Sequence record: ON470590
Source: Escherichia phage vB_EcoS-613R10
DNA length: 38,680 bases
Strand: one strand, 5' to 3'
In this document: positions 15,921 through 38,522 of the stretch, piece after piece
Layout: every line of letters begins with the position of its first letter
How positions within the stretch are numbered: position 1 is the stretch's first letter
Notes under the pieces: model-generated
The model's input: the letters and a program-made list of their open reading frames with translations, nothing else
The model's database searches: none
What the model was told of the DNA's origin: nothing
Made by a program: the position numbers and the translations under genes

Positions 15921-16210
15921 TGGTGGATTTACGTAAAGCGGCGCGGGGGCAGATGTGCACCGTCAGAATTCCTGGCTACTGCAATCACGATCCGGAAACG
16001 TCTGTGCTGGCGCATTACCGACTGGCGGGAACGTGCGGAACAGCGACAAAACCACACGATATGCAGGCGGCGATTGCCTGTAGCTCATGCCACGATCTAA
16101 TCGACGGGCGGGTAAAAACCAGCGATTACACCAAAGAAGAATTACGCCTGATGCATGCAGAAGGTGTTTTTCGCACACAAGAAATCTGGAGAAAGGAGGG
16201 ATATTTGTGA
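15920..16210 (+). CDS. DUF1364-family protein (YbcO-like, putative Zn-dependent nuclease)
   Basis: 96 aa; MxDLRKAARGxxCxVRIPGxCN...ACSxCHD pattern with conserved cysteines; start overlaps the upstream stop. Confidence 0.65.
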   Translation: MVDLRKAARGQMCTVRIPGYCNHDPETSVLAHYRLAGTCGTATKPHDMQAAIACSSCHDLIDGRVKTSDYTKEELRLMHAEGVFRTQEIWRKEGYL

Positions 16211-16749
16211 TTTACCCAACGAATACAGGAAAAAGCGGAGAACACCTTCGTCTCGCCACGCTGGAAAGTGTCTGGATTCAGGGCAAACTGCGTATGTGGG
16301 GGCGCTGGTCGTATATTGGCGGTGGCAGGTCAGGAAATATGTTCAATCAGTTGTTGGCATCCAAAAAATTGACGAAAACAGCCATCAATGAAGCCCTGCG
16401 CAGAATGAAAAAAGCGGGAATAGAGAAAGCTGAGCTGGAAGCGTTTTTGCGAGAGATGATCAACGGCAAGCAAAAGAGCTGGCTGGCGCATTGTACTGAT
16501 GCAGAGGCGTTATGTATTGATCGAGTCATAAGTGAGGTGCTGGCAGAGCATCCTGGATTGATTAGTGTCCTCCGGCAACGGTATGAAGGACGGGGGATGA
16601 CTAAGCGCAAAATGGCTGAATTGCTAAATGATGCACATCCTGAGTGGTGTTTTAGCACATGCGAAAAGCGAATTGCTAATTGGTTGGCTGTTGCTGAGTA
16701 TGCCCTATATATTCCCATGCGAGAATCATTTGCTCAAAAAATAGCTTGA
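16207..16749 (+). CDS. Putative late-gene antiterminator (Q-position)
   Basis: 180 aa from GTG at 16207, 6 nt after AAGGAGGG and overlapping the upstream stop; last gene before the late-promoter/terminator region; Cys pairs CTDAEALC and CFSTC. Function inferred from position only. Confidence 0.45.
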   Translation: MIYPTNTGKSGEHLRLATLESVWIQGKLRMWGRWSYIGGGRSGNMFNQLLASKKLTKTAINEALRRMKKAGIEKAELEAFLREMINGKQKSWLAHCTDAEALCIDRVISEVLAEHPGLISVLRQRYEGRGMTKRKMAELLNDAHPEWCFSTCEKRIANWLAVAEYALYIPMRESFAQKIA

Positions 16750-16832
16750 TTTTTTACGCATAAACTGCTTCAATTCCGGTATGCTTCGCAAAGCTGTATC
16801 GCGAGGCGAACCAAGCGCATGAACTTTACCAG

Positions 16833-16863
16833 AACCCGCCATTGAGCGGGTTTTGTTGTTTCT
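16833..16863 (+). terminator. Rho-independent terminator (tR'-like)
   Basis: AACCCGC-CATTGA-GCGGGTT followed by TTGTTGTTTCT; about 85 nt downstream of the Q-like stop. Confidence 0.6.
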
Positions 16864-16970
16864 GGTACTGGTGAACCTGATGTTTCATTTCTGGAGCGCG
16901 ATTCCTGGCGGAATACCTAGAATCGAGACATTCTGGTAAAATTGTTTTCAGTACAGGATGTGGAGGTGAG

Positions 16971-17540
16971 ATGAGAGAACTACCTAAAGATTATTTTTTA
17001 GGAGTAGATGATGAGCTCGTCGATTATCTTGAAAAACAAGGGGAAGAGACGATACGAGAGATTCATCTTTCTAACAAAACCAATGTTGAGAATGGATACA
17101 AACTTCTGAACATTCAGATTGTTGGAATTGGTTCATCTTTTTTATTGCTGACACAGAAAACTAATTTCGATTTTCTCACCGCCGGAATTACCACATTTAC
17201 ATTACTATGGACATGGTGCGCCATTTACTTGGTATGTACTGGTTTATCTGTGAAGGTTAGGGGCCTGATCAATGCCCCTCCTGATCATCTATATCATGAA
17301 AAATATAAGGATATGGAGCCCTCGAGCTTTAAAATATTCGCTGATGCAGGATATTTAGGACCTGATAAGTTATTGCCGCTTATACGAAGGTATCGCCTTG
17401 TTGACTTGAGTGATACAGCAAGAGAGTTACTGTTGGAAAATGAGAAAATCCGCACGAGTCTCGATAAAGCAAGGATGTATACCATCCTTGCTCCGGTAGC
17501 GGCGATGTTTATCTCGGCTGTTTTTTTATATGTTCAATGA
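16971..17540 (+). CDS. Uncharacterised membrane protein (moron between Q and holin)
   Basis: 189 aa; SD GGAGGTGAG; three hydrophobic segments (IVGIGSSFLLL, ITTFTLLWTWCAIYLVCTGL, ILAPVAAMFISAVFLYV); flanked by hairpin terminators. Confidence 0.7.
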   Translation: MRELPKDYFLGVDDELVDYLEKQGEETIREIHLSNKTNVENGYKLLNIQIVGIGSSFLLLTQKTNFDFLTAGITTFTLLWTWCAIYLVCTGLSVKVRGLINAPPDHLYHEKYKDMEPSSFKIFADAGYLGPDKLLPLIRRYRLVDLSDTARELLLENEKIRTSLDKARMYTILAPVAAMFISAVFLYVQ

Positions 17541-17670
17541 CTGAGTCGGCAGAATCTCCAACAAAAACACGACGTGTAGCAAAGTCTGTAGTACTTTGTG
17601 TTGGAGTTGGTTTTGGTGCCACGGGTTGCTGAGGTTTATTTTCACCTTGTGGTTTGTTTTTTTCAGACAT
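17509..17670 (-). CDS. Possible small Pro/Gln-rich protein convergent with the membrane gene
   Basis: 53 aa (MSEKNKPQGENKPQQPVAPKPTPTQSTTDF...) from ATG with SD AGAGGA 7 nt upstream; overlaps the 3' end of 16971-17540 by 32 bp; may be spurious. Confidence 0.3.
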   Translation of the reverse strand: MSEKNKPQGENKPQQPVAPKPTPTQSTTDFATRRVFVGDSADSVIEHIKKQPR

Positions 17671-17764
17671 AAAAATCCTCTTTGTTTGAATTGTTACTTT
17701 TGGCGATTTAACGATATCAAACACGAGTATATACCGCCAGAAGCTTAATCTGGCACTCCATCTG

Positions 17765-17789
17765 GCCCCGGCATGTCCCGGGGCTTTTT
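17765..17789 (+). terminator. Rho-independent terminator upstream of the holin
   Basis: GCCCCGG-CATGTC-CCGGGGC followed by TTTTT. Confidence 0.6.
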
Positions 17790-17887
17790 CGTTGTTAGGC
17801 TCTGGAAACATCCTCGACTTCTTGTTAGCAAGCCTGAGAGCCTGAATCTTACACTTAGCACCATCCGAACTCTCGGAGGTGAGGCTT

Positions 17888-18255
17888 ATGAAAATGCACA
17901 ATGCCCCTCATTCCTGGCCTGACTTACTGGAACTCTTACAAAGTTGGTGGCGTGGAGATACGCCGCTGGGTGCAGTGGTTATGTCAATTATTATGGCTGG
18001 TTTGCGCATTGCCTATTTTGGCGGGGGNNNNNNNNNNNNNNNNNNNNNNNNNNNNNNNNNNNNNNNCGAAAAACGCTTGAGATTCTGCTTTGTGGTGCTC
18101 TGACGCTGACCTTTGCATCCGCGCTTGAGTATGTCGGATGGCCTAAATCACTTTCTGTTGCCATTGGTGGTGGGGTGGGGCTGATTGGTGTTGATGCTAT
18201 TCGTGGTGCGGCAATGAGGGTCATCGGTAACAAGTTCGGTGCCCATAAGGAGTAA
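17888..18255 (+). CDS. S: Class I holin (lambda S-like), interrupted by an N-run
   Basis: MKM dual-start motif as in lambda S; hydrophobic segments before and after the gap; C-terminus LIGVDAIRGAAMRVIGNKFG resembles the lambda S tail; directly upstream of the endolysin. Confidence 0.75.
18028..18066. other. Run of N (assembly gap or masked sequence)
   Basis: 39 consecutive N inside the holin gene; the reading frame changes across the gap. Confidence 0.99.
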
Positions 18256-18735: not shown

Positions 18736-19196
18736 GCAGAGTAACCGCGATTATCTCCGCTCTGGTTATCTGCATCGTCGTCTGCCTGTCATGGGGTGTT
18801 AATCATTACCGTGATAACGCCATCGCCTACAAAGAACAGCGCGACAAAAATGCCAGAGAACTGAAGCTGGCGAACGCGGCAATTACTGACATGCAGATGC
18901 GTCAGCGTGATGTTGCTGCGCTCGATGCAAAATACACGAAGGAGTTAGCTGATGCGAAAGCTGAAAATGATGCTCTGCGTGATGATGTTGCCGCTGGTCG
19001 TCGTCGGTTGCACATCAAAGCAGTCTGTCAGTCAGTGCGTGAAGCCACCACCGCCTCCGGCGTGGATAATGCAGCCTCCCCCCGACTGGCAGACACCGCT
19101 GAACGGGATTATTTCACCCTCCGGGAACGACTGGTAATGATGCAGGCCCAACTTGAAGGTGCTCAGCAATACATAACCGAGCAGTGTTTAAAGTAA
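18732..19196 (+). CDS. Rz: Spanin inner-membrane subunit Rz
   Basis: 154 aa; N-terminal membrane helix then coiled-coil-like region; overlaps the R stop; Rz1 embedded in the +1 frame. Confidence 0.9.
18952..19137 (+). CDS. Rz1: Spanin outer-membrane lipoprotein Rz1
   Basis: 61 aa wholly inside Rz in another frame; lipobox LVVVGC; proline-rich mature part. Confidence 0.85.
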
Positions 19197-37833: not shown

Positions 37834-38522
37834 ATGACAGAGACAGAATCAGCGATNNNNNNNNNNAGGAAAGATATTTTCCCTGCGTGAATATCTCCGG
37901 TGAGCCGGAGGAGTATTTCCGGATGTCGCCGGAGGACTGGCTGAGTGCAGAAATGCAGGGAGAGATTGTGGCGCTGGTCCACAGCCACCCCGGTGGTCTG
38001 CCCTGGCTGAGTGAGGCCGACCGGCGGCTGCAGGTACAGAGTGATTTGCCGTGGTGGCTGGTCTGCCGGGGGGCGATTCATAAATTCCGCTGTGTGCCGC
38101 ATCTCACCGGGCGGCGCTTTGAGCACGGGGTAACGGACTGTTACACGCTGTTCCGGGACGCTTACCATCTGGCGGGAATTGAGATGCCGGATTTTCATCG
38201 CGGGGATGACTGGTGGCGTAACGGTCAGAATCTCTATCTGGATAATCTGGAGGCCACAGGGCTGTATCAGGTGCCGTTGTCAGCGGCGCAGCCGGGCGAT
38301 GTGCTGCTGTGCTGTTTTGGTTCATCGGTGCCGAATCATGCCGCCATTTACTGTGGTGACAGCGAGCTGCTGCACCATATTCCTGAACAACTGAGCAAAC
38401 GAGAGAGGTACACCGACAAATGGCAGCGACGCACACACTCCCTCTGGCGTCACCGGGCATGGCACGCATCTGCCTTTACGGGGATTTACAACGATTTGGC
38501 CGCCGCATCGACCTTCGAGTGA
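37834..38522 (+). CDS. K: Tail assembly protein K (lambda-like), interrupted by an N-run
   Basis: After the gap the frame reads ERYFPCVNISGEPEEYFRMSPEDWL...HSHPGG..., near-identical to lambda gpK as recalled; ATG at 37834 then a 10 N gap, so N-terminal length and frame are uncertain. Confidence 0.85.
37857..37866. other. Run of N (assembly gap or masked sequence)
   Basis: 10 consecutive N near the 5' end of the K gene. Confidence 0.99.

Follow-up and report, generated by a model that had tools for sequence, protein, structure and literature searches.

The window considered here is a 38,680-nucleotide (nt) stretch of DNA from Escherichia phage vB_EcoS-613R10 (sequence record ON470590). The region is identical to Escherichia phage vB_EcoS-673R7/666R9 (ON470616/ON470614) and also to the Rac-like prophage adjoining ttcA in many Escherichia coli chromosomes; the window is a Rac-like E. 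coli prophage. Between its Q-like late antiterminator gene and its holin gene lies a cassette of two convergent genes, one for a membrane protein of 189 amino acids (aa; hereafter the large protein and large gene) and one on the opposite strand for a basic protein of 53 aa (the small protein and small gene). Both open reading frames (ORFs) had been noted in a preliminary description made from the same DNA, which read the larger one as phage cargo and the two together as a possible exclusion, abortive-infection or toxin/immunity module. The features of the locus are collected in Table 1.

Table 1. Features of the cassette and its borders, numbered from the first letter of the window
Feature	Position	Strand	Remarks
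Q-like late antiterminator gene (DUF1133)	16207-16749	+	Context, outside the cassette; coordinates from RefSeq
Candidate late promoter (pR' analogue), TTGATT-17 nt-TTCAAT	16746-16775	+	Putative; read from the sequence
tR'-type intrinsic terminator of the Q unit	16830-16864	+	Hairpin 16830-16855 and T-run; left edge of the cargo slot
Candidate promoter of the large gene, -10-like box GGTAAAAT (here TGGTAAAAT)	16935-16942	+	Putative
Large gene, 189-aa inner-membrane protein with three helices	16971-17540	+	ATG start; predicted topology N-in, mid-domain in, C-out
Small gene, 53-aa basic, Pro/Gln-rich, largely disordered protein	17509-17670	-	Convergent; overlaps the 3' end of the large gene by 32 nt
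Shine-Dalgarno sequence of the small gene, AAAGAGGA	17676-17683	-	Sequence reading
Conserved non-coding block with extended -10-like element TGATATCGT (17711-17719)	17693-17719	-	Candidate promoter/leader of the small gene, putative
Conserved hairpin A, GCCAGA-N7-TCTGGC	17736-17754	+	Directly upstream of the cassette terminator
Intrinsic terminator of the cassette	17764-17796	+	Hairpin 17764-17785 and T-run; beyond the small gene
Lambda-family holin gene, dual-start motif MKM (17888-17896)	17888-18255	+	Context; ORF broken by a masked N-run

The convergent gene pair

The large gene is preceded by the Shine-Dalgarno sequence GGAGG (16962-16966, 4 nt ahead of the ATG), and its product has hydrophobic segments at residues 45-62, 68-92 and 170-189, so the strong ribosome-binding site and the three segments of the preliminary description were both recovered. 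On the Kyte-Doolittle scale the third transmembrane segment (TM3) is strong, TM2 is borderline and TM1 is weak and Gly/Ser-rich. Structure prediction, which had been proposed as a check, gives the same number of elements: the AlphaFold2 model, built on a 33-sequence alignment, is confident (mean predicted local distance difference test, pLDDT, 83.7) and consists of three long helices spanning residues 14-62, 68-92 and 134-188. By the positive-inside rule, the N-terminus and the domain of residues 93-169 are predicted to be cytoplasmic. The N-terminus is strongly acidic, with a mean of 11 acidic versus 4.6 basic residues.

Homologues of the large protein fall into about 100 clusters, all annotated as hypothetical and, in Enterobacterales, nearly all of exactly 189 aa; the genera include Escherichia, Klebsiella, Citrobacter, Serratia, Yersinia, Morganella, Proteus, Providencia and Pantoea, among others. 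An exhaustive HMMER scan of 1.84 billion representatives returned only 54 clusters of the family (at 50% identity), reaching down to about 27% identity. The conserved motifs are DYFLDxDDE..L.YLE, LL.I.IVGIGSSFLLLTQ (IVGIGSSFLLL), W80, P..LY, RRYRL and P175. Pfam, NCBIfam and PADLOC gave no match and the only family hit was PHROG 11870, of 'unknown function', in agreement with the earlier remark that the protein has no recognisable family. Against PDB sequences, the profile of the family had no significant match (the best was GpsB, E 0.09), and Pfam scans of 10 distant and then 30 family members found only scattered sub-threshold matches in the TM regions. Clear homology to a lysis or late regulatory protein did not appear in these family searches. 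Within E. coli the intact large gene occurs in at least 1000 contigs, and truncated forms are rare.

Among eight species-representative genomes the large gene is disrupted in three, by a frameshift in Leclercia (L018), by an insertion sequence (IS)-type insertion after residue 112 in Symbiopectobacterium (L019) and by truncation at about residue 96 in Yersinia pekkanenii (L020). The Leclercia genome keeps an intact small gene despite its disrupted large gene.

The small ORF is a protein-coding gene, since its ratio of non-synonymous to synonymous substitution (dN/dS) is 0.08-0.32 across eight pairs, with a proportion of synonymous differences (pS) of up to 0.66 (Nei-Gojobori); the convergent Pro/Gln-rich frame with a good Shine-Dalgarno sequence, as first described, is thus present and under purifying selection. 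Its family, as found in a profile search, numbers about 75 clusters with members of 46-53 aa; every one is hypothetical, and the taxa are those of the large family. Conservation follows the pattern MS..NKP..(E/D).KPQ...KP.P...F...R.(V/I/L)VGDSA(D/E)...KK.K, in which R.V.VGDSA(D/E) is the core motif, followed by a basic tail; the net charge is +1 to +6. AlphaFold2 renders the small protein alone as mostly coil with one short C-terminal helix at residues 42-49 (predicted template modelling score, pTM, 0.24). Its only family match is PHROG 14506, 'unknown', and Pfam, NCBIfam and PADLOC gave none; neither protein had a match in BFVD.

Public annotations of the small gene disagree on its length (53, 71, 100, 128 or 130 aa). 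Conservation starts at the 53-aa ATG, and the calls of 71-130 aa are over-extended. The RefSeq call of 71 aa uses a GTG start at 17724 and would put the conserved promoter-like block inside the coding sequence. A 130-aa ORF with a TTG start (17509-17901, minus strand) was rejected, as neither conservation nor the frame continues upstream of the 53-aa ATG.

The two genes travel together. The small gene is present in 14 of 15 intact enterobacterial cassettes, convergent and with a 3' overlap of 20 or 32 nt; the exception is a 192-aa Salmonella variant, which has a different downstream gene and lacks the small one. A convergent small ORF of the same type, of 41-57 aa and with the motifs kept, also accompanies all six distant relatives (L030, L031, L033, L034, L035 and L037), whose identity is 24-36% and of which L034 is from Pasteurella multocida. 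At every locus the pair is convergent and overlaps or abuts at its 3' ends. Both genes are conserved and under selection in two orders of Gammaproteobacteria, and their arrangement is fixed. The proposal that they form a two-gene module is strongly supported by these observations.

A mobile cassette in the late cargo slot

The left end of the cassette is at about 16865 and its right end at about 17862-17881. The query has matches in 1446 of 5426 complete E. coli genomes; only 223 carry the cassette, while the other matching genomes (>1000) match almost wholly within 16750-16864. Alignment with two cassette-less prophages shows near-identity through the first hairpin and its T-run and then an abrupt loss of similarity. 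Because these prophages share the first terminator and homology stops directly after it, this terminator is the tR' of the phage and part of the Q unit. The two hairpins said to bracket the large gene both exist, but the first belongs to the Q/pR' unit and only the second to the cassette.

After an identical tR', sister Rac-like prophages have the slot filled with different cargo. In E. coli RM10740 (L011, 3617-4390) it consists of transfer RNA (tRNA) genes tRNA-Thr and tRNA-Gly and a 96-aa ORF, and the lysis cassette differs (essD/rrrD). Another prophage (L012, 3600-6924) has tRNA-Ile, tRNA-Arg, TerB, DUF3927 and a SASA/NanS-p esterase.

The cassette is AT-rich, as had been noted, with a GC content of 0.37-0.43 versus 0.48-0.53 in the flanking genes. 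Presence and absence at the same position among close relatives, a terminator of its own and a deviant base composition were all found. As for an own promoter, a conserved GGTA(A/T)(A/G)AT box lies upstream, and Morganella and Pantoea carry a terminator in its place. What lies at about 16865-17870 is an accessory cassette (moron) of temperate phages that is self-contained and horizontally mobile, in line with the original placing of a moron in the Q-S slot. It shares the hot spot directly after tR' with known lambdoid morons and Q-S cargo (stx, tRNAs, nanS-p, TerB; HK97/HK022-type) and, like them, is present or absent among near-identical prophages, AT-rich and equipped with its own terminator and promoter-like box. 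Unlike them, it is a fixed convergent pair with a nested antisense protein gene and conserved hairpins, and both of its families are functionally unannotated.

In other genera, the cassette follows antiterminators of three families (Phage_antitermQ, PF03589 Antiterm and DUF1133) and precedes holins of several unrelated families; at about 20 enterobacterial loci it stands directly between the antiterminator and the holin/endolysin genes. A survey of whether homologues always sit between Q and lysis genes had been called for, and the answer is divided: all enterobacterial loci conform, but the six distant relatives lie elsewhere, every one of them away from lysis genes. In L035, a metagenomic phage (6527-7402), the small gene starts 15 nt after the stop of cI (Peptidase_S24), with its own Shine-Dalgarno sequence; the position directly after cI is the one that rexAB occupies in lambda. 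In Pasteurella the neighbours are a cI-like repressor gene and a RelE/ParE pair, one other distant relative lies beside a cI-like gene and an HSDR_N gene, and others are found among recombination genes. Because the cassette is independent of position, it points to an autonomous function rather than a role tied to one lysis system.

The neighbourhood in the window runs DUF1367, YbcO, the DUF1133 Q-like antiterminator, the cassette, the lambda-family holin, endolysin, Rz/Rz1 and trkG, so the cassette does lie between a putative Q gene and the holin as first stated. The product of the antiterminator gene matches DUF1133 of Pfam at 1e-106 and Phage_antitermQ marginally over its cutoff (E 5.3e-06, 26.8 vs 26 bits), and it corresponds to PHROG 753, 'anti-termination protein Q-like'. 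Two N-runs are present in the window, at 18028-18066 (39 bases) and 37857-37866 (10 bases). The first falls inside the holin gene and exceeds the real sequence of ON470616 by 26 bases: in that record the holin occupies 17888-18229 and the endolysin starts at 18233, compared with 18259 in the window. The holin ORF thus appears broken because of masking, not biology. Within the Rz gene lies an ORF for an Rz1-type lipoprotein (18952-19137) of 61 aa, which is Pro-rich and has a lipobox-like VVGC. The embedded Rz1 and the Met-Lys-Met dual start of the holin are ordinary lambda-type lysis features.

One further record stands out. 'Actinobacillus phage vB_Apl-pPE4' (L009, PP818812.1) carries the enterobacterial DUF1367-YbcO-DUF1133 block, and its tR' region hardly differs from the one in Rac-like prophages of E. 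coli. An equivalent match, at 52.9% identity, occurs in CP100067.1, an E. coli 'plasmid' of 47.7 kb and about the same size as pPE4. The host assignment of pPE4, or the replicon type of CP100067.1, may deserve a second look.

Terminators, hairpins and candidate promoters

More than 1000 E. coli genomes have the segment resembling pR' together with the DUF1133 Q gene, and pPE4 conserves it as well. Of the enterobacterial regions examined ahead of the large gene, most have GGTA(A/T)(A/G)AT some 30-50 nt from the start codon, and the box occurs also in the distant relatives L030 (GGTATAAT) and L035 (CAGGTAAAGT). Morganella, Pantoea and Pasteurella instead have a terminator about 25 nt before the start of the large gene; in Morganella and Pantoea no -10-like box was seen.

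Upstream of the small gene, the conserved block contains TGATAT(C/T)GT, has columns that are invariant across genera, is better conserved than the coding sequence itself and is present in most enterobacterial cassettes. The distant relatives have a perfect TATAAT at the place equivalent to its -10-like element. Direct repeats of 11-13 nt, two in each case, flank this TATAAT (CCCCAACAGAG twice; CCACAACG(C/T)ATAA twice); they are located at about 3065-3130 in L030, at about 5780-5850 in L031 and at 5660-5720 in L034 (minus strand). The repeats could be operator sites for some regulator.

Hairpin A lies between the promoter-like block and the cassette terminator, where the -35 element of the small gene would fall. 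An equivalent folded or was evident in most of the 12 cassettes folded; the element occurs in L002, L003, L013-L018, L023, L025, L030 and L031 and is absent from pPE4. Its stem variants, those of L030 and L031 included, are complementary by eye, without scoring (GCCAGU/ACUGGC, GCCGC/GCGGC and, in L031, GCCUGA/UCAGGC). An attenuator formed by hairpin A and the terminator was considered, as TCTGGC occurs twice in E. coli, and rejected, as the second copy is not conserved in Serratia.

The cassette terminator comprises eight pairs in RNAalifold, seven of them with compensatory changes, and its position is kept across genera. The count of terminator-like hairpins in the region is not above that in shuffled sequence (3 found, 2.7 expected). 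No plus-strand terminator was found between 17540 and 17764, so the small gene lies inside the 3' untranslated region (3'UTR) of the large gene's transcript. On the minus strand, no conserved terminator was found after the small ORF. A weak hairpin with a T-rich tail (17463-17486, minus strand), 23 nt past the stop of the small ORF, occurs in E. coli only and is not conserved. A search of Rfam with 16700-17950 gave no credible match.

L035 has a minus-strand terminator (5958-5946) immediately upstream of the promoter-like box of the large gene, and with the terminator so placed a run-on transcript from the small gene would cover the large gene in antisense over its full length. The same would hold for cI if the two were co-transcribed, which the distance of only 15 nt between the cI stop and the small-gene start suggests.

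Possible roles of the pair

No homology to a known defence, toxin-antitoxin or lysis protein was found for either protein. PADLOC-DB v2 gave no match at E up to 1, and the literature, searched by topic, accession and PHROG identifier, contained nothing on the two proteins. As in lambda RexA/RexB, the cassette pairs a small polytopic inner-membrane protein with a partner predicted to be cytoplasmic, and the L035 module sits exactly at the rexAB site after cI, a positional analogy. Unlike RexA/RexB, the cassette is convergent and not an operon, its partner protein is a disordered one of 53 aa as against about 280 aa for RexA, and the large protein has three helices where RexB has four. The family libraries revealed no sequence relationship to RexA or RexB, RexB itself not having been compared directly. 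The large protein and SieB of the same prophage are unrelated (hhalign probability 0.1%). SLATT, PycTM and YLATT effectors have a similar overall shape, with a helix in the cytoplasm ahead of two or three membrane helices that bear a polar face; unlike those systems, the cassette has no associated nucleotide-signalling gene, and no Pfam match reaches the gathering threshold.

In its transcription the pair recalls lambda oop versus cII and sib/tI versus int, where a convergent transcript overlaps the 3' end of the regulated gene. As in lambda retro-regulation, a terminator-proximal hairpin could separate terminated from read-through transcripts, which is a regulatory analogy only. Unlike oop and sib, the antisense transcript of the cassette is a protein-coding messenger RNA.

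We tentatively favour a reading in which the cassette encodes a membrane effector and its small antagonist, coupled by antisense transcription; its probability falls somewhat short of even. The large protein would begin with an acidic helix in the cytoplasm, followed by a hairpin of TM1 and TM2, of which TM1 is rich in Gly and Ser and has a polar face; a basic middle domain, also cytoplasmic, would lead to the helix that anchors the C-terminus. As an effector it would be potentially harmful, and would either resemble a pore or channel or block membrane processes. The small protein, which is basic, predicted to be largely disordered and presumably cytoplasmic, may bind the strongly acidic N-terminal helix of the large one, and together with antisense transcription it would act as an antidote or regulator. 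The large gene's transcript would end at the cassette terminator and span the whole small gene, and the small gene's transcript would run antisense into the large gene. Because the transcripts would be convergent and nested and that of the small gene lacks a conserved terminator, the two messages would be mutually antagonistic. Terminators on both sides and the nested antisense gene would keep the level of the membrane protein low.

The state of the phage, lysogeny or lytic growth, would then set the balance of the pair. In the lysogen the small gene would dominate from its own candidate promoter and, in L035, also through the suggested co-transcription with cI. During lytic growth, antiterminated Q-dependent transcription from pR' would read through both tR' and the cassette terminator, over-run the promoter of the small gene and raise the membrane protein. 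The output is likely exclusion or abortive infection of competing phages, which would be the most natural one, or else, as the main rival, a late membrane function independent of a specific holin. The narrower proposal, that the pair is an unrecognised prophage anti-phage system of the toxin/antidote type (exclusion or abortive infection) whose balance is set by convergent transcription, is doubtful as it stands. Under this proposal, a membrane-disrupting effector would be restrained in the lysogen by the small disordered protein and its messenger RNA, and lytic antiterminated transcription, or the shut-off of host transcription by an invader, would release it.

Several points weigh against an effector and antagonist. 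No homology-based support was found for toxicity, pore formation, physical interaction or phage exclusion. Pfam, NCBIfam and PADLOC gave no match, and structure searches gave only generic helical-bundle matches. The sub-threshold matches to PycTM, SLATT_3 and YLATT are sporadic (1-2 of 30 members, best E 0.016-0.13) and are no evidence of family membership. Because intact copies are common in E. coli and truncation is rare, the large gene is evidently not strongly counter-selected there; and the large protein can exist without the small gene, since the Salmonella variant lacks it. The convergent orientation is unusual for protein toxin-antitoxin (TA) pairs, and the type II arrangement, a co-directional bicistronic operon, was found at no locus. 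A consensus promoter scan called none of the candidate promoters, which are consensus-like motifs. Further, every enterobacterial locus has the cassette just upstream of the lysis genes, as a lysis-related role would predict.

The alternative that survives best, although we consider it unlikely, is benign lysogenic conversion, such as stress tolerance, envelope modification or transport, with the small gene a mere regulator of expression and no toxicity or exclusion involved. The slot and its neighbourhood do hold such cargo (trkG downstream, TerB and NanS-p in sister phages), the rarity of disruption in E. coli fits it, and the promoter-like and terminator elements would suit expression from a prophage. 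Against it, the large protein resembles no transporter or enzyme and has only three helices with large cytoplasmic helical extensions, and insulation by terminators and a nested antisense gene is more typical of products that are kept low.

Improbable to a further degree is a late lysis accessory under Q control, which would tune lysis timing or holin triggering in an antiholin-like manner or block late superinfection, with the small protein as modulator. Like the holins and antiholins lambda S107, T4 RI and P2 LysA, the large protein is a small helical membrane protein whose gene, in Enterobacterales, adjoins the lysis genes and is transcribed with them. The location between antiterminator and holin/endolysin at some 20 loci speaks for this role. 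So does the order of genes: the large gene is the first after tR', and Q-modified polymerase must transcribe the cassette before the holin. The arrangement in Morganella and Pantoea, a terminator shortly before the start and no -10-like box, also fits, and the weakly hydrophobic, Gly/Ser-rich TM1 recalls the releasable signal-anchor helices of some lysis proteins. However, the adjoining holins speak against a specific holin partner, as they belong to unrelated families (lambda S type, Phage_holin_2_1/2_3, Phage_holin_3_1 and unclassified), and the linkage to lysis genes is not obligate, as the six distant relatives are found close to cI or to recombination genes. Lysis also takes place in closely related prophages that lack the cassette, and the cassette has its own terminator and promoter-like boxes. 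No holin family reached threshold: Pfam, NCBIfam and PHROG gave no lysis match, and only one or two members gave any hit, at E >0.1.

A type I-like RNA system, in which the antisense RNA alone is the antagonist and the 53-aa frame is incidental, appears highly improbable. Prophages do carry type I systems whose transcripts overlap at the 3' end, such as txpA/RatA and bsrG/SR4 of Bacillus subtilis, and the cassette shares with them its prophage location, a membrane-targeted product and convergent 3'-overlapping transcripts. As the small ORF has no conserved terminator, its transcript would be complementary to the 3'UTR of the large gene over about 200 nt. Unlike in these systems, however, the supposed toxin has 189 aa and is not a hydrophobic peptide of <60 aa, and the antisense transcript is not a non-coding RNA, as its frame is under purifying selection with many synonymous changes. 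The small gene also has a Shine-Dalgarno sequence, and its motifs and constant length (46-53 aa; 41-57 aa in the distant relatives) are kept even where the partner is only 24-36% identical. Finally, the view that there is no functional unit at all, the small ORF being a gene-caller artefact and the large one decaying, might appeal to the discordant annotated lengths of the former and to truncated or interrupted copies of the latter (L018-L020 and truncated clusters), but it is refuted by the comparative data, in which both genes are conserved and selected across two gammaproteobacterial orders in a fixed arrangement.

The annotation of the locus is corrected in two respects: the small gene encodes 53 aa rather than 71-130 aa, and the first of the 'bracketing' terminators is tR'. 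The design is unusual, in that the 3'UTR of one gene contains, in antisense orientation, the conserved protein gene of its partner; such nesting could tie the activity of an effector to the decision between lysogeny and lysis. If the antagonism of the membrane effector and its small partner is real, the cassette would represent a compact two-gene membrane-effector system spread across prophages of Enterobacterales and Pasteurellaceae, which current catalogues of defence and toxin-antitoxin systems would have missed.

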